Shown here: positions 21,148 through 59,350 of the stretch, piece by piece | How positions within the stretch are numbered: position 1 is the stretch's first letter | How the letters are laid out: every line of letters begins with the position of its first letter | Virus record (IMG/VR): IMGVR_UViG_3300032236_001159 | Span: 21,711 to 85,710 of that record | DNA length: 64,000 nt | DNA from: a virus | Direction: 5' to 3' (one strand) | Position numbers and translations under genes: made by a program | Notes under the pieces: model-generated | Databases searched by the model: none | What the model was told of the DNA's origin: nothing | The model's input: only the letters and a program-made list of their open reading frames with translations

Positions 21148-22845
21148 TTACCTATACTCCCACATATATGATCTATCCCCATATTCATCAAGATGCCATC
21201 CATTTTCATCACCTTGAAGTTGATTTCCACCAATAACTTTCCAAGTATCTCCTTCGGTGTCAACAAAGGTGTTTTCATTATTTAGACCGTCAGTAATAAA
21301 CCCAAAAGGAGACATATCCTGCTCTATTTGTTCCTTTTGATCCTCATATATTCTTTTGCGGACATCATTTTCTGTCATCTCCTTGAAGTAGTCTTGAACT
21401 ACCAACCAAGCAAAGATAACTAAACACATTACCAAGTCATCATTTGATCCTTCTTCTGCTTCAAATGATTGATTTTTTTGAATGAAAGTTGTTAATTCGC
21501 TAATAATATCATAATCATTGAATATTAATTTGTCATCTTCTATAATTGTCTTCAAGTTGGAGCAACCCACTCTCTTTACTGTCTTGGACATTTTCACACC
21601 CAATTGAGTTTTCTTTCCAGAAAATCCTTGTCCAACTAATTGCCCTGCTCTACCTCTCATCGCACACATTAGAATATTATCGTATTCCAAATCAAAATGC
21701 AAAATACTTGTTACTTGTTCGCCAATATCATTAACTTCAGCTAAAACAAAAGCTTTATTGTATGCTCTTGCTACATCCAAAATAATATTTGGAAAAAGCA
21801 TAGGTTTGATTTCATTGTTTTTGTATTTTGCAACTATTCTATACGGAAATGTAGTTATATCAAAAACTACAAATGCTGAATAATCATTATCTACTCCTCT
21901 AGAAACATCCACCGTCATTATATAAGTGTGGTCTTCTTTTGGCTCTTCATATACATCCAATCCTCCACTTTTTTCTATTGGATCGTCATATACTAAATTT
22001 CTTAGTTTTGTTGCATTAATTAAAGTTCCAACAGAACCAAGAAATTCACACTCAAATTCAACTGCAAATTGTTGATCGCTTGTGTTGGCTATTGTTTGGC
22101 GTTTCCATTCTTCATCCCTACCCGGAACATCACTCCAATGAACTTCTGTTGAGATATATTCATTCTTTTTCCTTTCGGCATCATGCCAAATTTTATAAAA
22201 ATGATTCATCCCGTGAGGTGTAGAAACAATAATCATCTTGGTAGATTTACCAGATGATATTACGGGATAAACCGAACTAAAAAATTCATCTGCAACATTA
22301 TTTGGAACAAACGCAAATTCGTCCAAAAATACAATATTATAAGATCCACCACGAACCGCAGATGCGCTAGTAGAGGCGGCAACAATCTTAGAACCATTCT
22401 CAAGCTCTAAGGATCCTTTGTTCCATATCAGGACGCCTTGCTGCATCCATTTGGGGAGATTTTCGTATGCTAGTTGAAGTCTTCCGAGAAGGTCTCTAGC
22501 AGTAGACGCTTTATTAGCAAGAATCGCAATATTGACGTTATCATTAAATATTGCGTAATGAAGTAAATAAGAAACGACAGTGGTAGATTTTCCAGACTGC
22601 CTTGGCATTTTGCAGATATTGAATCTATGATCATGGAAATTCTTAATAAGTTTTTCTTGAAACTTGTACATATTAAAAGGCACAAGACCATGATCAAGAG
22701 AAACAATTTTTATATAATTTTTTGCAAAATATACTGGATCCTTTTTGCATTTTATATACTGTTCAATATCATTCTTAGTGAATTCTATTGGTGTATTTGC
22801 TTTTTTTAGTAAAGGATTGCCTAGATACTGATCACCACTACTCAT
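21148..22845 (-). CDS. gp17: Terminase large subunit (uninterrupted)
   Basis: YLGNPLLK, PRQSGKST, FLDEFAF, STPHG, DVSRG..DYS, DDLVM. Confidence 0.98.
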   Translation of the reverse strand: MSSGDQYLGNPLLKKANTPIEFTKNDIEQYIKCKKDPVYFAKNYIKIVSLDHGLVPFNMYKFQEKLIKNFHDHRFNICKMPRQSGKSTTVVSYLLHYAIFNDNVNIAILANKASTARDLLGRLQLAYENLPKWMQQGVLIWNKGSLELENGSKIVAASTSASAVRGGSYNIVFLDEFAFVPNNVADEFFSSVYPVISSGKSTKMIIVSTPHGMNHFYKIWHDAERKKNEYISTEVHWSDVPGRDEEWKRQTIANTSDQQFAVEFECEFLGSVGTLINATKLRNLVYDDPIEKSGGLDVYEEPKEDHTYIMTVDVSRGVDNDYSAFVVFDITTFPYRIVAKYKNNEIKPMLFPNIILDVARAYNKAFVLAEVNDIGEQVTSILHFDLEYDNILMCAMRGRAGQLVGQGFSGKKTQLGVKMSKTVKRVGCSNLKTIIEDDKLIFNDYDIISELTTFIQKNQSFEAEEGSNDDLVMCLVIFAWLVVQDYFKEMTENDVRKRIYEDQKEQIEQDMSPFGFITDGLNNENTFVDTEGDTWKVIGGNQLQGDENGWHLDEYGDRSYMWEYR

Positions 22846-51228: not shown

Positions 51229-53097
51229 TTATCTTGTATAATTTCCGTTGATGTAACTTGAGGTTGTTATGTACGAAGTAGCAGAAGTATTTTCACCAGA
51301 AGTAATAATATCTTCTATAGTATTTACTATAGTATTTGAAGTGTCTATTTGCAAATATGATTCTTTCAGAGCAATTACATCATTTGATTCCGGCATTGCT
51401 TGAATTTGTATGGTATTATTTGGCAAAGAAGTTGAGGTAATATTTACTATATTTAATAAAATTTCCCCATCGGTATAATTAACCGTACCTGCGTTGCTGC
51501 TGACAACAACAGGAACATTATTTACAAGTTTGAAGAATAAAATCTTTCCTTTTGAACTGTCTATGGGAGAATCAGTCAAGTATAATACATCAGATATTCC
51601 TTTAATATTGAATCCGGAAGATTTTATGTTATAATTTCCTGCTTTTTGGTGAAATTTATTTCCAAAACATAACTCATAAGTAGCAAATTTGTTTATTTGT
51701 GCTTGCAAATCTCTTCTCATTTTTACTTTTGTTATATTCGAAGTAATTGCCTTATTTGTATTATCAATTAATGCATTTATTTTACTATATTTGAATCTTC
51801 CACCAAAACTATTCACATCAGAGGAGGCGGAATATGATTTTATTGTATTAATAACTTGATTTTTCAATAAAATTACATCAGAAGTGAATGAAGTATTATA
51901 ATAAATTGTTGTATCAAGCTCAACGTATAAGTATTTTAAATCTATAATTTCTGGTTTAATTCCAGCAATTGAATATTGTCTTAATTTCTTTAAAATATCA
52001 TCTTTTGTGATTTGAGATAGATAATTTCCATTTCTTGGCTTAATCGATATGAATACTTTTCCATATTCTGGGGGATTTAATTCATCTCCACCATATGCAC
52101 TTACAGAATCTACATTTGAGTAAATATAAGGAATCAATCCTTTATAATCATTTGCAGTAACTGCTCTATATTGTGAAGCATATACTCTTGGTGCAAGATA
52201 CTTAACTGAATCTATCGTTTCAATATCATCACCATTTTGCGATGAAGAAATAGTTGTTAGTAATGAAATTCCACTCGTAATACTTACTGAATTATTATCT
52301 TTTAAATTTCCGGAAAAGGTAAAGTTTGCAGATCCATCTGCCGATTTGCCATTTGTTACGATATATGAAATAGTAATCACACTTCCGTGGGTTGGTTTTT
52401 TCCCTAAAATATCATCTCCAAATAATATTTCATATTTTTCATCTTCAATTTCTTGAAGTAAAAATAATCTTGATGTATTATCGACATTTAAAATATTTTC
52501 ATACAATGTATATGTTTCCGTAGTAGAATTTGTAACACTTACGCGAATTGTTGTGGTGTCTACTCCAGAATTAGGAATAATAAATCTTTGATTTGCTTGA
52601 CTATAATCGACTGTGAATGTTTTTGTTAAATATGTTCCTTCGTAAATATCAATATTATCAAAATATGCAATATTTGAATCATCTACTGCAACTGTAATAT
52701 TTGATGGTATTGAAAATATATAATTTCCACCTTGAACCGCACCTAATGCAATTACTCCTGCATTCAAAGTAATCGTTTTGGAGTTAAATCCTGTACTATC
52801 TACGGAAAAACTAATTTTTGCCTTAGATGCTCTCTTTGAACGGGGAACATATCCAATATTTCGTGCATGTGAGATTACATTTTCTCTGAGCGTTGCACTA
52901 TCAAGGAATGCTTCATTTGCCTGCATATTGGTGTTATATGCAGTAATATAACTATTATACGCAAGAATATCAATCAGGACCGAAAAATTAGATCCTTCAA
53001 AATCGAAATCAGTAAAATTAGAATTTGTTCTCAGATAATCTTTAATCTGAGTTCGTAGATCGCCAAAATCTAAATTGGTAAACTGATTAAATGCCAT
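51229..53097 (-). CDS. gp6: Baseplate wedge subunit
   Basis: LDF...FTDFDFEGSNFSVLIDILAYNSY, FLDSATLRENV, QYRAVTANDY. Confidence 0.96.
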   Translation of the reverse strand: MAFNQFTNLDFGDLRTQIKDYLRTNSNFTDFDFEGSNFSVLIDILAYNSYITAYNTNMQANEAFLDSATLRENVISHARNIGYVPRSKRASKAKISFSVDSTGFNSKTITLNAGVIALGAVQGGNYIFSIPSNITVAVDDSNIAYFDNIDIYEGTYLTKTFTVDYSQANQRFIIPNSGVDTTTIRVSVTNSTTETYTLYENILNVDNTSRLFLLQEIEDEKYEILFGDDILGKKPTHGSVITISYIVTNGKSADGSANFTFSGNLKDNNSVSITSGISLLTTISSSQNGDDIETIDSVKYLAPRVYASQYRAVTANDYKGLIPYIYSNVDSVSAYGGDELNPPEYGKVFISIKPRNGNYLSQITKDDILKKLRQYSIAGIKPEIIDLKYLYVELDTTIYYNTSFTSDVILLKNQVINTIKSYSASSDVNSFGGRFKYSKINALIDNTNKAITSNITKVKMRRDLQAQINKFATYELCFGNKFHQKAGNYNIKSSGFNIKGISDVLYLTDSPIDSSKGKILFFKLVNNVPVVVSSNAGTVNYTDGEILLNIVNITSTSLPNNTIQIQAMPESNDVIALKESYLQIDTSNTIVNTIEDIITSGENTSATSYITTSSYINGNYTR

Positions 53098-53498
53098 TAT
53101 ACTCTAGTTGGTTGTAAAATGAATTCTATATTTTGAGTTGGAAATGGTAAACCAACAATATCATAAGAAATACGAATATCTAAATCGTTAGAATCTTCTG
53201 GAATATCAATCACAACACTTCTTAATCTAATTCTAGGTTCAAAATTTTTGAGAAGTGTTGTGATCTCTTCTTGTAAAAATGAAGATATTCCAGAAGATTG
53301 GAGTTCAAATAATGAATTATCTACAGAAGAACCCAATAAAGAATTAAAAAATCTTTCATTGATACGAGTTCTAACCAAATTTATGACAGATCTTTTGATT
53401 GCATCCTCATTTTTAAGAATACTTATATCATTTGTAACTGGATGCCTCGCAAAAGACAAACTAATATCTTTAAAACTGCGAGAAATTGTTACTGCCAT
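53097..53498 (-). CDS. gp25: Baseplate wedge subunit
   Basis: FKDISLSF.RHPVTND, AIKRSV.NLV.T...ER.F, FEPR. Confidence 0.95.
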   Translation of the reverse strand: MAVTISRSFKDISLSFARHPVTNDISILKNEDAIKRSVINLVRTRINERFFNSLLGSSVDNSLFELQSSGISSFLQEEITTLLKNFEPRIRLRSVVIDIPEDSNDLDIRISYDIVGLPFPTQNIEFILQPTRV

Positions 53499-53840: not shown

Positions 53841-54062
53841 TTATTTTTTGATTTTTTCGTTAAAATTTAAAATAGAATCTCGATTAAATGTTAAATTTTT
53901 CTGAATTCGAATGTCTGAATTTCGAAAAGTCCAACAAAATCCACCATCATCCAAGAAAACTACCCATTCGAGGTCGTGTTCCTGAGAACGATCAATCAAA
54001 AAGAAAGCCCAGCCATTACCTTTTGGAGTAATAACTGGGATTTGTGGATTCAATTGAATCAA
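53841..54062 (-). CDS. Hypothetical protein
   Basis: 73 aa (QLNPQIPVITPKG.GWA...W..F...G.CW); starts at a TTG overlapping the upstream stop. Confidence 0.7.
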   Translation of the reverse strand: MIQLNPQIPVITPKGNGWAFFLIDRSQEHDLEWVVFLDDGGFCWTFRNSDIRIQKNLTFNRDSILNFNEKIKK

Positions 54063-54193
54063 CGACCTTGACCTCTATACTTTTTACGAGCACCATTACG
54101 ACTTGATTTCGCGTATTTGGTATTTTTTCCTTCACCTTGACGAGTATTCTTTGGAGTACTCTCAATTTTCATCTCTTTTCTTGAAGCAGCCAT
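54059..54193 (-). CDS. Small basic protein (44 aa), below the ORF-track cutoff
   Basis: Manual translation MAASRKEMKIESTPKNTRQGEGKNTKYAKSSRNGARKKYRGQGR; GGAG RBS upstream. Confidence 0.8.
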   Translation of the reverse strand: MAASRKEMKIESTPKNTRQGEGKNTKYAKSSRNGARKKYRGQGR

Positions 54194-54368
54194 TTAATTT
54201 TCTCCCAGTTTGATTATAAAACGGTTTTTGTACGGTTTTTAAGAAGACTTATAATCATTAAGGTCTTCTGAGAACATTGAAAATGCCTCTGTGAAACGTT
54301 TTAAATCTCACAAAGGCATTCTATCATTATTCAGTTGAAAAAGTCAAGAAGCGCCTGAGAGAAGTACC

Positions 54369-55124
54369 TCAGATGATTCTAGTCTTTTCATGCCCAACAC
54401 GAATTTTTGGATCACACCAAATCTCAAATCCTGCTTCTTTTGCATCTAGACAGAACGAGACATCCTCGCCGCACATATCCTGAACCTCACCAGATTCAAA
54501 TACTTGCATTTTTGGTGCAAACCAAGGATATTCTAGATTCTCAAACACTCCATTCTTAATGAGTACCCAACCAAAACCTGTGTAATCAACTGTAAATGGC
54601 TTGCGACGCTTGCTCATCGTTTCTAAGGTTTCGTGATTCATCACTCCACCATTACCTCTGAAATCATCTTCATCCAACCAATGAGCAACTGAGGTGGTCA
54701 TTCCGTCCTCAGTACAATACCATCCAGCAGCAATATCCTTATTCATTGAAACAAGACGATAAAACTTTTCAGTATCAAATACAATATCACTATCAATCCA
54801 TAGTTGATAATCATACTTCAAACGCCCATCCCAAGGAACTTGTTTTGGTCCTCTGAGAACATTTGCCCCAAGAACTTTGCAACGGGCAAAATTTACCATT
54901 GAACTATAATCTTGTGAAATCTGAATACTTGCCCCAGACTGAACCAAATCAAAACACAATTGAACAAAGTTCTTTAAGAAAGTATATGATACTCCTCTAC
55001 CAGGAAGACAAAATACAATTGATTTTCCTTGTATTGTTTGTTTTGCTAATGCTAAATCAAAATCGTCTTCATTATTAATTGAAGATTTAGGCGCTGCTGC
55101 TTTTACCGTAAAACCTTTTGCCAT
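54369..55124 (-). CDS. Conserved cyanophage protein with a GT-A glycosyltransferase-like fold
   Basis: LWIDSDIVF (DxD), TGFGWVLIK, GEDVSFC, VGHEK. Confidence 0.75.
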   Translation of the reverse strand: MAKGFTVKAAAPKSSINNEDDFDLALAKQTIQGKSIVFCLPGRGVSYTFLKNFVQLCFDLVQSGASIQISQDYSSMVNFARCKVLGANVLRGPKQVPWDGRLKYDYQLWIDSDIVFDTEKFYRLVSMNKDIAAGWYCTEDGMTTSVAHWLDEDDFRGNGGVMNHETLETMSKRRKPFTVDYTGFGWVLIKNGVFENLEYPWFAPKMQVFESGEVQDMCGEDVSFCLDAKEAGFEIWCDPKIRVGHEKTRII

Positions 55125-55156
55125 AAGTATAAAATTTTAAAAATAGTACCTTTATT

Positions 55157-55185
55157 ATTCTACCACCACAATTCATTTATTGCAA
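55157..55185 (-). promoter_or_regulatory. sigma70-like promoter
   Basis: TTGCAA-17bp-TAGAAT with extended TG. Confidence 0.6.
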
Positions 55186-55343
55186 GGTGGTTCTGCTTTA
55201 TTTAGAGTGATCTCGATATCATCATCATTGCCCCCAGAAGTCCATACAAGTCCTCTGATGAGTTTCAGATTTTCCTGTAAATCACTCTGAGATAATTGAC
55301 TTACAATATTCGTTCCTTTGACCAAAATATTATAAGTATTCAT
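55173..55343 (-). CDS. Small hypothetical protein (56 aa)
   Basis: Manual translation MNTYNILVKGTNIVSQLSQSDLQENLKLIRGLVWTSGG... Confidence 0.6.
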   Translation of the reverse strand: MNTYNILVKGTNIVSQLSQSDLQENLKLIRGLVWTSGGNDDDIEITLNKAEPPCNK

Positions 55344-55482
55344 CTTCTTCTACTTTTCTGAGAAGATCTTCAATTTCTTCTCTAAGAGTATTATTAATCA
55401 CTAATATTTTATCTGTGTATAATCTATGTTGAATTGTTTCCAGTAGCAAATCTTTCTCATAGTCATCAAATTCTAGTTTCAT
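55330..55482 (-). CDS. Small hypothetical protein (50 aa)
   Basis: Manual translation MKLEFDDYEKDLLLETIQHRLYTDK...; overlaps the next start. Confidence 0.6.
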   Translation of the reverse strand: MKLEFDDYEKDLLLETIQHRLYTDKILVINNTLREEIEDLLRKVEEDEYL

Positions 55483-55719
55483 ATTTGAAATGTGTGTGCG
55501 TTTCTTTTTATATAGTGTTTTTTGTCCTTTTGTGAGTGTTTTTTCCTGGGGAAATTTTTTGTTGCTTTTGTAAACCTGTGCGGGAATTTTAAATCCTGGA
55601 AATTTTTTTTAATTGACGTGTATATATTCGAGCGTTTTCAAAGTTTTGTAGGTTACAGGGACCCTTTAAATTAGCTTTTAGGGTTAGGACGCTTTATAAA
55701 CCTTATGAGGCGAGCAACG

Positions 55720-55738
55720 GGGGGTATAAATAACCCCC
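55720..55738 (+). promoter_or_regulatory. Hairpin GGGGGT-ATAAATA-ACCCCC containing a plus-strand late promoter TATAAATA (55725-55732)
   Basis: Read directly from the sequence. Confidence 0.6.
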
Positions 55739-55745
55739 ACGACCC

Positions 55746-56177
55746 CGATATAACTGTCCATTTAGCACATTTTTATTCTAATACACGAAACATACCCCCA
55801 GGTACGCTATAACGAAGGCGACGATATAACTGTCCATTTAGTGCAATTTGATTCTAATACACGAAACATATCCCCAGGTATAATATAATTTAAGAACATT
55901 ATCCTCCCTGTATAAACGAATGAGTAAGCTATAATATAACACGAAACACTGTCTAATACTTTATAGTATTGACGAAGTTGCAAAGTATAATAGAATAGAC
56001 GAAATGCAATCTAGTATATTTTGTCAGTGTGTTAAGTATCAAACAGTGGTGCTTATTAAGAACCATTTAGTACTGCTTGATTCTAATACACGAAACATAT
56101 CCCCAGGTATGTAAAAGACGAAGATCTATAAGAATAACTGATAGTATAGGATTACACGAAGTATCTGATAGCACGAA
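55746..56177 (+). repeat. Dispersed direct repeats (~59-bp unit x2 plus a partial third copy) and 11 co-oriented ACGAA pentamers
   Basis: Units at 55746-55804, 55822-55880 and 56063-56109 share CCATTTAG-N8-9-ATTCTAATACACGAAACATAYCCCCAGGTA. Confidence 0.92.
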
Positions 56178-56195
56178 TTAGATGTTCTTATGATG

Positions 56196-56570
56196 TCAAT
56201 TTGAAGTGGGAACTTTCTCATACTTAGTACAAAATCTTGGTTTGATTTGTTCCTGTAACTGTGCCTCACAATCATTATTAGCAACTATTGAGAATTCAAA
56301 GTTTTCCAATCCAAACTCTGCCATATGATAATGTATATTCTGAACTACAAATCTTTCATTTGATTTTCCTATACACTTTACACAGGATTTGTGAACCCTC
56401 CATCTATTTTTTGGGTTCATACTTTTACCGACATAAACTATTTCATTAGTAATAGTGTTTGTTATGATATAAGTATAAACAGTTTTTAGTGCTTTCTCCA
56501 CAGTTTCTCCACAGTTTCTCCACAGTTTTATAATAGTTCTCCACAGGATGATTTTTATAAACCATTGCAA
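56196..56570 (-). CDS. GIY-YIG endonuclease-like protein (start uncertain; short)
   Basis: YTYIITNTITNEIVYVGKS.NPKNRW..H...GLENFEF...E. Confidence 0.75.
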   Translation of the reverse strand: MQWFIKIILWRTIIKLWRNCGETVEKALKTVYTYIITNTITNEIVYVGKSMNPKNRWRVHKSCVKCIGKSNERFVVQNIHYHMAEFGLENFEFSIVANNDCEAQLQEQIKPRFCTKYEKVPTSN

Positions 56571-56605
56571 ATACTAGGTATTGCTTATAACCTGTGGAGA
56601 ACTAT
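56494..56605. repeat. Cluster of five TTCTCCACA 9-mers: three tandem at 11-bp period, plus one pair forming a 15-bp inverted repeat
   Basis: Copies at 56494, 56505, 56516, 56537 (+) and 56593-56601 (-). IR is 56533-56547 / 56591-56605. Confidence 0.9.
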
Positions 56606-56659
56606 CAATTCATCCCCCCCTTATAGCATAACATAACTCAAAATATTATGTTGATGCCT

Positions 56660-56718
56660 TGTGCCAGTTGTGTAAGTGTCTGGAAATACTTGACTTTTGG
56701 GGCGGTGTGTGTTATAAT
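56660..56718 (+). promoter_or_regulatory. Plus-strand early-type promoter (motif + TTGACT-17-TGnTATAAT)
   Basis: TGTGCCAGTTGTGTAAGTGTCTGG at 56660-56683, -35 at 56690-56695, -10 at 56713-56718; same 26-nt spacing as the minus-strand cassettes. Confidence 0.8.
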
Positions 56719-56738
56719 TAGCGGGCTTAGACCCATAA

Positions 56739-56842
56739 AAAGTAGAAGGTTTAATCAAGCATTAACACATAAAAGAATTCATTCACACATAAAGTAGAAG
56801 GTTTAATCAAGCATTAACACATAAAAGAATTCATTCACACAT
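56739..56842 (+). repeat. Perfect tandem duplication of a 52-bp unit
   Basis: AAAGTAGAAGGTTTAATCAAGCATTAACACATAAAAGAATTCATTCACACAT x2. Confidence 0.95.
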
Positions 56843-56903
56843 AACAATCAACAATATAACATTATCATCATATCAACACATAATGTTTTTTAATACATTT
56901 ATT

Positions 56904-57092
56904 TCATTCTTTTAATACACCATATTCATTCAAAATACCACCAAACCATTGATGATTATATACTCCAACATACAATTTACCAATAGAAAAACCAAATTGT
57001 TCTTCATGTTCTGACTGACCATGACTCCAACCAAGATAGAATAACTTGGTATGAATGAATCCATAATCAGAAGTGACACGCATATCAATCAT
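56904..57092 (-). CDS. Hypothetical early protein
   Basis: 62-aa ORF, last of the early cluster. Confidence 0.6.
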   Translation of the reverse strand: MIDMRVTSDYGFIHTKLFYLGWSHGQSEHEEQFGFSIGKLYVGVYNHQWFGGILNEYGVLKE

Positions 57093-57300
57093 TTTGTTGC
57101 GTAAGAGATACAGAGGACATAGAAATCAGTTCATTTTGAATATCCAGCAGTTCATATTCATCATCACATTGATCAATATCTACAACATCAAACTCATTCA
57201 GATTGATTGAACCATCAGTGTAGATAGGAGCAACTAATAACTCATTGAACTCATCAAGAGTGTAAATAGCACCTTGATCTTCTTTGTAGAATAAAATCAT
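57085..57300 (-). CDS. Hypothetical early protein
   Basis: 71-aa acidic ORF. Confidence 0.65.
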   Translation of the reverse strand: MILFYKEDQGAIYTLDEFNELLVAPIYTDGSINLNEFDVVDIDQCDDEYELLDIQNELISMSSVSLTQQND

Positions 57301-57364
57301 TTTAGTTTAGTAAGTGAGTTATGTTTATGTGTTGTATTTTGAAGTAAAATACTCTTTGAGACTA

Positions 57365-57673
57365 TCAGTCATTTCCAAACTCCTCTTTTAGTTTCAGATA
57401 CTGTTTGAATCGTTCCTCTTTATCTTTATCAATCACCCTTGCTTTTAGTTGTCTATCTAAATCGTCCATCAATTCATCAAAATCAGCATACTCATAATTA
57501 AAAGAATATCTATTAGAATCTTTATTAATACGAAGTTTTACATTCTCTCCCCATTTGCCATAGTTAATTACAATTTCATAACCACCATATACATCTTCAT
57601 TCGTACTCCATGTATAACCAAGTTTTTCAACTTTGAAGATGAGTTGAAGAAATTCGTTTGCGGTAACAGTCAT
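57365..57673 (-). CDS. Hypothetical early protein
   Basis: Likely start MTVTANEF; C-terminal QYLKLKEEFG motif common in phage early proteins. Confidence 0.7.
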   Translation of the reverse strand: MTVTANEFLQLIFKVEKLGYTWSTNEDVYGGYEIVINYGKWGENVKLRINKDSNRYSFNYEYADFDELMDDLDRQLKARVIDKDKEERFKQYLKLKEEFGND

Positions 57674-57674
57674 T

Positions 57675-57803
57675 TCAGTTTTGTTGGGTGAGTTTAATAG
57701 CATCAAGAATGGAAGTAGTCAGATACTTACAAACACCATCTTTATCAACAAGAGCATAAACAAGTTGTTGAGTTTTGATGTCGTAGGTGAAACGAGTAGT
57801 CAT
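57675..57803 (-). CDS. Small hypothetical protein (42 aa)
   Basis: Manual translation MTTRFTYDIKTQQLVYALVDKDGVCKYLTTSILDAIKLTQQN. Confidence 0.55.
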   Translation of the reverse strand: MTTRFTYDIKTQQLVYALVDKDGVCKYLTTSILDAIKLTQQN

Positions 57804-57847
57804 TTGGTGTTTTGAGTGAGTAAGAGTGAGTTAGTTACTGATGATTT

Positions 57848-57997
57848 CTAGTAGTTCTCATCAACATGGTTTTTTGCCTCATCTTCTACACCTTCATCGT
57901 AGATTGCTTGGGCAAACTTCAAGAGTTGTTCTTCTTTACCTGCGAAGTCACCAAATCCACAGATTTTAGCAAGTTCAAGTATCTGTTCGTTAGTCAT
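57848..57997 (-). CDS. Small hypothetical protein (49 aa)
   Basis: Manual translation MTNEQILELAKICGFGDFAGKEEQLLKFAQAIYDEG... Confidence 0.65.
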   Translation of the reverse strand: MTNEQILELAKICGFGDFAGKEEQLLKFAQAIYDEGVEDEAKNHVDENY

Positions 57998-58029
57998 TTG
58001 GTTTTTTGAATGAATGAGTGAGAGTGAGA

Positions 58030-59291: not shown

Positions 59292-59350
59292 ATTATAGCA
59301 GGTCTCAGGGTCGTTTGGGAGTATAATGTGCCAGAAGAATTACTGGCACA
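59292..59350 (-). promoter_or_regulatory. Early promoter cassette (palindrome + extended -10)
   Basis: TGTGCCAG-N8-CTGGCACA at 59327-59350, then 26 nt, then TGCTATAAT. Confidence 0.85.

Follow-up and report, generated by a model that had tools for sequence, protein, structure and literature searches.

A non-coding field of 11 ACGAA pentamers, all read on the same strand, lies in the genome of an uncultured T4-like cyanomyovirus (a virus of cyanobacteria; contig of 85,710 bases), and arrays of the same kind, with 6-17 copies but otherwise dissimilar in sequence, recur in related genomes. The DNA analysed here, called the window below, is a stretch of 64,000 nucleotides (nt) corresponding to positions 21,711 to 85,710 of IMG/VR virus record IMGVR_UViG_3300032236_001159 and numbered from its first letter. 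Judging from sequence comparison, we tentatively regard the field, with somewhat less than even confidence, as an array of many oriented DNA sites at which a putative, probably lineage-specific factor would dock. The control region around it, designated here as the hub, is a candidate replication start by analogy with the position of T4 oriE.

An oriented ACGAA field in a non-coding region

The original prediction, made from the letters of the window only, had listed 11 ACGAA copies on the + strand (55785, 55812, 55861, 55916, 55941, 55972, 55999, 56090, 56118, 56156 and 56173) and none on the - strand. All 11 are present, and the - strand is free of the pentamer between 55309 and 57600. In the whole contig, ACGAA occurs 76 times on the + strand and 75 times on the - strand; outside the field the two strands are even (65 vs 75). 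The densest 400-nt interval of the contig is the field itself (10 copies on the + strand, 0 on the - strand), and the runner-up anywhere has 4. From the contig counts, about 0.3 ACGAA per strand are expected in 393 nt, giving a Poisson probability of ~1e-13 for 11 copies; if the three duplicated repeat units described below are counted once, 9 copies instead of 11 remain. The enrichment of the field in ACGAA is far beyond chance. Outside the field, the extended motif W-W-N-V-ACGAA-B (IUPAC code) was found in the 85.7-kb contig only within coding sequence. As it occurs nowhere else outside coding sequence, its function should be local; a dispersed regulon in the contig was ruled out on the same count.

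The long repeats reported in the original prediction are real, and appear as three 67-nt copies (Table 1). Their 28-nt core, ending in CCCCAGGTA, occurs 3 times vs 0 times in 100 shuffled sequences. The ~76-bp register seen in the window is kept by these three long units only (0, 76 and 305 nt). A CRISPR-like (clustered regularly interspaced short palindromic repeats) or type III antitoxin array was rejected, as identical repeats of fixed length and fixed period are absent: there are only three long copies, spaced 76 and 229 nt apart and 72-88% identical, and the other motif copies have unrelated flanks.

The original prediction had also described the region as free of open reading frames (ORFs). 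Taken literally this does not hold, as mechanical ORFs of 34-58 amino acids (aa) exist on both strands, but none of them is a gene. They match only the near-identical loci L001-L004 (related loci are numbered with the prefix L), in several frames, and no other array group; the stretch is therefore non-coding.

Conservation of the field in related viruses

A scan with the repeat core yielded four close relatives, L001-L004, and a search with the glycosyltransferase-like protein encoded downstream of the hub yielded 80 syntenic loci. At least six pentamers within 500 nt and on the same relative strand were present in 10 of the 49 loci whose upstream flank is 1800 nt or longer. Furthermore, a search for the junction, defined as a pentamer separated by three bases from a DnaA box, retrieved 53 loci; among the 49 of these with full flanks, 32 have 8-16 ACGAA but at most one TTCGT within 700 nt ahead of the junction. 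The loci with at least seven motifs number 48 and fall into 22 groups sharing <30% of their 16-mers. For a representative set, two doubtful arrays (L034, with a GC content of 0.59 and 7 motifs; L045, with 7 motifs over 578 nt) were dropped and the six-copy array of L012 was included. The resulting 21 dissimilar arrays (10.8 kb) contain 259 ACGAA vs 6 TTCGT, with 15.9 expected, and each of them has 6-17 ACGAA copies. The pentamer bias noted in the original prediction for the window is thus kept in related genomes. Note that in L034 a GC-rich (0.59) insert lies upstream of the glycosyltransferase-like gene, in which the 7 ACGAA have chance-like spacing; this locus was treated as a false positive.

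Within lineages, 161 of 560 motif columns (29%) are variable vs 1078 of 3336 other columns (32%; Fisher p = 0.10), so that purifying selection on single motif copies is not significant at the level of sites. By comparison of the aligned sequences, selection seems to act on the number and polarity of the motifs and not on their sequence.

A four-motif pattern retrieved 55 new loci from viral contigs. Nine of them are irregular fields, eight with GT251/o50/o56 and one with o71 only; the remaining 46 carry no cyanophage marker and are mostly short-period tandem repeats (mainly 13 nt). All irregular fields that were found belong to contigs of this uncultured cyanomyovirus lineage. In bacterial genomes the same pattern matched at least 120 stretches, which are unrelated tandem repeats, and no Synechococcus or Prochlorococcus record is among the matches listed. 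None of the isolates S-SSM7, P-SSM2, S-CAM9, S-RIM8, P-SSM7 and S-CAM22 has a field of at least seven motifs, and a BLAST search with the hub against 50,697 phage records gave no match; these records include no isolate of the present lineage. P-SSM2 is borderline, with 6 TTCGT in ~300 nt within an unannotated 960-bp gap. This gap (L086, 2345-3304) also contains the boundary element described below, a few ACGAA and an apparent uncalled ORF on the - strand.

Grammar of the motif

If 139 sites are aligned on the pentamer, information is present only at -4/-3 (A or T), -1 (not T) and +5 (rarely A), with no conservation at a fixed distance further out. The informative site therefore comprises ~10 nt with a core of 5 nt. 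The base preceding AC is A in 61 of these sites, C in 41, G in 32 and T in 5; AACGAA accounts for 140 of the 259 copies in the 21 arrays, and the commonest form is TATAACGAA (60 of 248 unique sites). The spacings range from 10 to ~100 nt and peak at 13, 17, 19 and 28 nt. Helical phasing was rejected, as the spacings have no helical period.

A second strand-biased word, ACTGT, occurs 104 vs 26 times and is found in 21 of 21 arrays; palindromes around ACTGT are present within the fields. The left part of the fields consists of long units in which ACTGT and a quasi-palindromic ATTnnAAT are followed, after about ten bases, by a run of G or C and then by TATAACGAA, and the three 67-nt repeats of the window are long units of this ACTGT...ATTnnAAT...TATAACGAA type. 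In many lineages the right part has alternating 13- and 17-nt units and passes into DnaA boxes. In the arrays of L116, L090, L015 and L138, one ACGAA is immediately preceded by the conserved near-palindrome GTACACAGTACTGTGTAC or a variant of it (ACGAATAGTATAGCAC). This near-palindrome may be a dimer site separate from the pentamer.

Neither duplex stability nor RNA structure distinguishes the field. The stacking energies of 60-bp segments are -68 to -75 kcal/mol, with a mean for the window of -71.4 +/- 4.7, and this average stability rules out the field as an unwinding element. The fold z-scores against shuffled sequences are -0.42 (+ strand) and +1.19 (- strand). Hairpins presenting the pentamer in the loop were rejected, as closing pairs are not over-represented around 317 unique sites (z = 1.25, -4.26 and 1.28 for the first three pairs). 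A skew in strand composition was rejected as well: with the motif masked, AT and GC skews differ in sign between lineages.

Boundaries of the field

The position of the field is fixed, with the GTAGGTTAGGG boundary on one side and DnaA boxes on the other. On the left, all lineages share the order T-run, GTAGGTTAGGGTAG, TTTTATATA, G-run, CAWCGG and -10-like hexamer, beyond which come an A/C-rich 20-mer and, after it, the first ACTGT...ACGAA unit. The boundary element is kept in the fieldless isolates P-SSM7, S-RIM8, S-CAM22 and P-SSM2, and the match of the L023 array to isolates is limited to its first 54 nt, i.e., to this element. The succession CTTTGTAGGTTAGGGTAGT, TTTTATATA and G-run lies at 55640-55740 in the window, at 3440-3560 in L140-L142 and at 3140-3200 in L086. 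The boundary element adjoins CCTGTGGAAAA boxes just before the first downstream gene; P-SSM7 and S-CAM22 have the exact CCTGTGGAAAA in place of the degenerate box-like motifs of the window.

The GGGGGT/ACCCCC hairpin, right behind which the original prediction had placed the start of the array, was confirmed directly in the sequence. It is confined to the subgroup of the window, and its counterpart elsewhere is the boundary element G-run, CAWCGG, TATAAT. The plus-strand late promoter proposed for this place is not conserved: the T4-type late octamer TATAAATA is present in the window, L001, L003 and L004, and L002 has TATAATTA. Among 20 lineages, the -10-like hexamer is TATAAT in 11, TATAAG in 5, TACAAT in 1, TAATAA in 2 and TATAAA in 1, the window's own. 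As the octamer is replaced by TATAAT-type hexamers in the relatives, a conserved late promoter for the field is unsupported. A -10 box of the sigma-70 type on the + strand before the field is possible; no convincing -35 box was found for it.

The right boundary consists of DnaA-type boxes. The cyanobacterial DnaA-box consensus is given as TTTTCCACA in PMC4674748, and each DnaA-box-like 9-mer of the window differs from it by one mismatch. In most lineages the DnaA boxes follow the field, and in L013, L015 and L023 an ACGAA stands 2-3 nt before a DnaA box (7 of 52 boxes in eight loci). No DnaA box is present within the 2.5 kb scanned in the field-bearing loci L007, L012, L025, L031 and L051, and DnaA boxes are found without a field in L008, L020, S-RIM8, P-SSM7 and S-CAM22. 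As field and DnaA boxes each occur alone in some lineages, they are separable modules of one hub.

In L001-L003 the field abuts the boxes; in the window an ORF similar to GIY-YIG homing endonucleases is inserted exactly between the two. The related loci searched gave 0 matches for this gene. Its listed TTG start overlaps the box array, and the true start is probably further in.

Genomic setting and the o56 gene

Most ORFs of at least 90 aa and all identified genes are on the - strand. The hub (55483-56900) is gene-free except for the GIY-YIG ORF and constitutes a control region that divides the early-gene region from the baseplate (gp25/gp6) module (Table 1). The glycosyltransferase-like protein shares 80-85% identity with proteins of Kyanoviridae (Synechococcus and Prochlorococcus myoviruses). 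No tRNA genes were found, and the only Rfam match in 54000-58000 at E <= 1 was a single chance match to miR-135 outside the ACGAA field.

Small genes upstream of 57000 carry repeated cassettes of a palindrome and a TGCTATAAT promoter. Early-type promoter cassettes on the - strand are located at 59327, 60208, 61345 and 62261; in these, a TGTGCCAG-N8-CTGGCACA palindrome is placed ~25 nt upstream of TGCTAT(A/G)AT, and a common leader CAAGCAAAGGA is present. The strong backward-facing promoter of the hub has a TGTGCCAG half-palindrome in front and two copies of a 52-nt repeat behind. According to the stacking energies, the hub melts most easily at 56850-56940, behind this promoter.

The first gene downstream of the hub, o50, is found in lineages with and without the field and splits into the same two clades as the distribution of o56. 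In contrast to o50, the o56 family (MNTYNISV.G...LK.IRGLVWTSGG..DI.V.LN) is found only in field-bearing contigs. In the syntenic set, with loci of <1800 nt flank left out of the co-occurrence table, o56 is present in 8 of 10 field loci vs 0 of 39 fieldless loci. It is also present in 8 of 9 further fields retrieved with the independent pattern, i.e., in 16 of 19 overall; the field-bearing loci that lack it are L034, L051 and the short-flanked L310. The gene is absent from the 50,697 phage records. A comparison of 21 members with Pfam gave no match below E = 0.008, the best PDB match had E = 0.36, and the matches in Atlas are unnamed clusters only. The association of o56 with the field may be simple co-inheritance.

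Table 1. Features of the ACGAA hub and its surroundings (coordinates of the window).
Feature	Position	Strand	Description
gp6	51229-53097	-	
gp25	53097-53498	-	
Glycosyltransferase-like gene	54369-55124	-	conserved
o56	55173-55343	-	56 aa, MNTYNI...RGLVWTSGG; two genes downstream of the field
o50	55330-55482	-	acidic 50-aa protein; first gene downstream of the hub
Degenerate reverse box-like motifs (three)	55545-55610	+	CCTGGGGAAA, CCTGTGCGGGAA, CCTGGAAA; T-run after each
Left-boundary element, conserved	55648-55660	+	GTAGGTTA(CA)GGG; also in P-SSM7, S-RIM8, S-CAM22 and P-SSM2
GGGGGT/ACCCCC hairpin	55720-55738	+	stem 55720-55725 / 55733-55738; TATAAATA at 55725-55732
Long repeat unit 1	55746-55812	+	ACTGT ... 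ATTCTAAT ... ACGAA ... CCCCAGGTA ... TATAACGAA
ACGAA field	55785-56177	+	11 oriented pentamers; extended motif W-W-N-V-ACGAA-B
Long repeat unit 2	55822-55888	+	88% identity to unit 1; 76 nt after unit 1
Long repeat unit 3	56051-56117	+	72% identity to unit 1; 229 nt after unit 2
GIY-YIG homing-endonuclease-like ORF	56196-56570	-	124 aa; catalytic domain only
DnaA-box-like 9-mers	56494-56601		TTCTCCACA at 56494, 56505, 56516 and 56537; inverted TGTGGAGAA at 56593
Sigma-70-type promoter, strong, backward-facing	56690-56718	+	TTGACT-17-TATAAT with TG (TTGACT-17-TGTTATAAT)

Possible functions of the field

The presence of the field and its strand polarity, conservation, grammar and position are established above; that its sites are bound, by what kind of factor and to which effect, we infer from them. 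Many copies of one sequence-specific factor, probably encoded by the phage lineage, would bind the 10-nt site W-W-N-V-ACGAA-B head-to-tail. Together with the ACTGT, ATTnnAAT and G-run modules and the host DnaA boxes, this factor would form a large nucleoprotein complex. How active the hub is would depend on this complex, which would act either in the start of phage replication or in the insulation of late genes from early transcription. We favor a docking array because the 10-nt site has the footprint size of one DNA-binding domain, because motif density and polarity are conserved while single copies turn over like spacers, and because the motif itself is the only consistent strand asymmetry. 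The fold z-scores and the lack of loop closure give no sign of RNA structure, which also argues for a signal on DNA, as does the embedding of the field in DNA-type elements (ATTnnAAT, ACTGT palindromes, DnaA boxes). Further support comes from the fixed position between the GTAGGTTAGGG boundary and the DnaA boxes, from the restriction of irregular fields to one lineage, where o56 accompanies 16 of 19 field-bearing loci, and from the local nature of the extended motif, found nowhere else outside coding sequence in the contig.

Several points weigh against a docking array. No binding protein has been assigned to the sites. The spacing is irregular and shows no helical phasing, which is unusual for cooperative DNA binders. 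The conserved -10-like box on the + strand upstream of the field would permit a + strand transcript, and perfect strand polarity is equally expected of an RNA or single-strand signal. As for o56 as a candidate partner, its protein is acidic by residue count and has no relative in Pfam, PDB or Atlas, and shared descent confounds the association of o56 with the field: the tree of the glycosyltransferase-like protein provides only 2 contrasts that are independent and lie on supported branches.

A more specific proposal is that the field is the iteron-like half of a hybrid origin, in which a lineage-specific phage factor covering the oriented motifs would contact host DnaA on the adjacent or interleaved TTTTCCACA boxes and thus recruit or redirect the host initiator. 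The original prediction had preferred an iteron or origin array. Part of this idea holds: DnaA boxes adjoin the field and are interleaved with it in three lineages, and the hub lies upstream of gp25/gp6, like oriE. However, the field is not an unwinding element, it lacks regular iteron spacing, and field and DnaA boxes are separable. An origin-linked, iteron-like role is plausible by analogy; the hybrid origin in its specific form seems rather unlikely to us, although, if true, a T4-like virus would start or time its replication by the Rep-plus-DnaA logic of plasmids. To our knowledge, such logic has never been described for T4-type phages. For a packaging-initiation or decoy-DNA site, the last option of the original prediction, the analysis yielded neither support nor counter-evidence.

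Alternatively, the field may be transcribed rightwards (+ strand) into a non-coding RNA whose unpaired ACGAA motifs titrate an RNA-binding protein or a nuclease, i.e., act as a sponge or decoy. This would account for the perfect strand polarity and for a density that is kept while copies turn over, as in multivalent sponges. The -10-like box has a fixed place upstream (TATAAT in 11 of 20 lineages, the rest 1-2 mismatches off) and an A/C-rich leader after it, the + strand fold is no stabler than shuffled sequences, which suits an unstructured RNA, and all genes are on the opposite strand. However, no -35 box is known, the motifs are not displayed in loops (closure tests on 317 sites), and no consistent A/C-rich or other strand composition is left after masking of the motif. 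Furthermore, the interleaved palindromic DNA-type elements and the DnaA boxes stay unexplained, a protein partner for such an RNA is not known, and Rfam has no family that matches the field. We consider a sponge RNA unlikely.

Somewhat less probable is that the motifs act on single-stranded DNA at an origin as start sites for primase, with pppACGAA-type primers made on the - strand as template. Synthesis primed there would run rightwards, or would make the lagging strand of a fork that moves leftwards from the DnaA-box/AT-rich side. T4 gp61 primers begin with AC and have five nucleotides. The motif likewise begins with AC and has five nucleotides, the primer would have + polarity and point at the DnaA boxes and the promoter/AT-rich cassette, AACGAA (with GTT as template site) makes up 140 of 259 copies, and the hub is placed like T4 oriE. 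However, known primases (T4 GTT, T7 GTC type) need a fixed cryptic template base 3' of the start, and the nucleotide before AC is variable (A 61, C 41, G 32, T 5). Priming leaves the conserved GAA and the A/T at -3/-4 unexplained. Further points against it are the even strand counts elsewhere in the contig (65 vs 75), a field that is not easily melted, and five field-bearing lineages with no DnaA box within the 2.5 kb scanned.

We give the same low credence to a function on the - strand, where the field would be read as a long RNA leader that carries UUCGU motifs and regulates the downstream genes (o50, o56, glycosyltransferase-like gene), or as operators in - strand promoters (TTCGT upstream of TAnAAT, ACAGT at the start). 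The field is directly upstream of o50-o56 in gene direction, o56 co-occurs with it, and the units read TTCGT-N2-TA(G/T/C)AAT-N3-4-ACAGT on this strand. However, a promoter scan of the field revealed none that is strong on the - strand; its top candidates have 10 of 12 matches without TG. This is no better than in shuffled sequences (16 vs 12.4 +/- 3.9), and ATTnnAAT is not consistently a good -10 hexamer in either orientation. Moreover, ~240 nt of conserved boundary separate the field from o50, and the - strand folds more weakly than shuffled sequences (z +1.19).

Tandem + strand promoters, with ACGAA as start site or discriminator, or with TATAACGAA as a phage-specific promoter, are more doubtful still. 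TATAACGAA is present at 60 of 248 unique sites, the long units have a -35-like CTGTC(A/C), a spacer of 16-17 nt and TnTAAT two bases before ACGAA, and the field contains one sigma-70-like match, TTGACG-16-TAGAAT. However, the distance from TAnnnT to ACGAA is not fixed, the position-specific matrix lacks a T/A/T pattern where the -10 box would be needed, TCTAAT, the most frequent hexamer, has C instead of the critical A as its second base, and TATAACGAA departs from the T4 late consensus at the last three positions.

Finally, functionless repeat debris, i.e., a motif carried by unit duplication or a relic of the mobile endonuclease gene, would fit the 3 of 11 copies in recent duplicates, the GIY-YIG gene at the field edge and single copies that are not measurably more conserved than the spacers (Fisher p = 0.10), but is already very unlikely, given 21 arrays with <30% shared 16-mers that keep 6-17 copies at 259 vs 6 and an endonuclease gene missing from all related loci searched (0 matches).

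T4-like cyanophages are among the most abundant viruses on Earth, and we know of no replication origin or hub-binding factor that has been mapped in them. The 10-nt oriented site, with its 6-17 copies beside host DnaA boxes, could serve as a bait for a hub-organising protein, and the field could be used for testing whether cyanophages make use of host DnaA. It may also serve as an example of selection on the number and polarity of motifs, a type of conservation that alignment-based searches miss.

Comparison with known systems

We found no published description of an ACGAA field. The literature searched had no item linking cyanophages with ACGAA, and ACGAA, TTCGT or UUCGU as whole words led to no work on phages; the nearest literature motif, named from titles, is the PIP (plant-inducible promoter) box of Xanthomonas, TTCGB-N15-TTCGB. 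By title and abstract there was nothing on cyanophage origins, and the items listed by a broader search were only general work on DnaA and oriC. For cyanophages together with DnaA boxes, the titles and abstracts concern cyanobacterial, not phage, genomes.

CsrB/RsmZ sponge RNAs present their motifs in hairpin loops and have a proven transcript and a known partner protein. Like these RNAs, the field has many copies of a short motif whose number is conserved while the sequence drifts, but its ACGAA motifs lack loop presentation and it is known here from DNA alone. The GATC clusters of E. coli oriC and P1 oriR/pac resemble the field in that a very short motif is over-represented, irregularly spaced and placed beside DnaA boxes, with proteins that count sites and not positions. 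However, GATC is palindromic and read via methylation, whereas ACGAA is asymmetric and restricted to one strand.

The iteron origins of plasmids P1, F, RK2 and R6K share with the hub head-to-tail repeats beside host DnaA boxes, a gene-free region and a conserved copy number. Iterons have 17-22 bp, regular spacing and a cognate Rep gene, whereas the site described here comprises ~10 nt, its spacing varies from 10 to ~100 nt and the DnaA boxes are optional; no Rep-like gene was found for the field.

T4 itself is not known to have DnaA boxes. The hub lies ~2.2 kb before gp25/gp6, much as oriE lies ahead of baseplate wedge genes; in the T4 record (NC_000866), 1.7 kb separate oriE (79355) from gene 6. 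Both regions have tiny genes and a gene for a GIY-YIG endonuclease close by. According to PMC3016281, oriE is located upstream of gene 6, depends on a backward early promoter and has repeats of undefined role; the hub is similar in combining clustered direct repeats with a backward-facing early-type promoter. In T4 the repeats form evenly spaced units of 12/24 nt that are coding, within gene 5, and not enriched in ACGAA, whereas the present field is non-coding and irregular with a 5-nt core. With regard to T4 R-loop origins of the oriF/oriG type, a -10-like box precedes the field at a fixed place, with exact TATAAT in 11 of 20 lineages, but the field itself is of average duplex stability. By analogy, T4 oriE appears to be the nearest analogue of the hub in position and logic.

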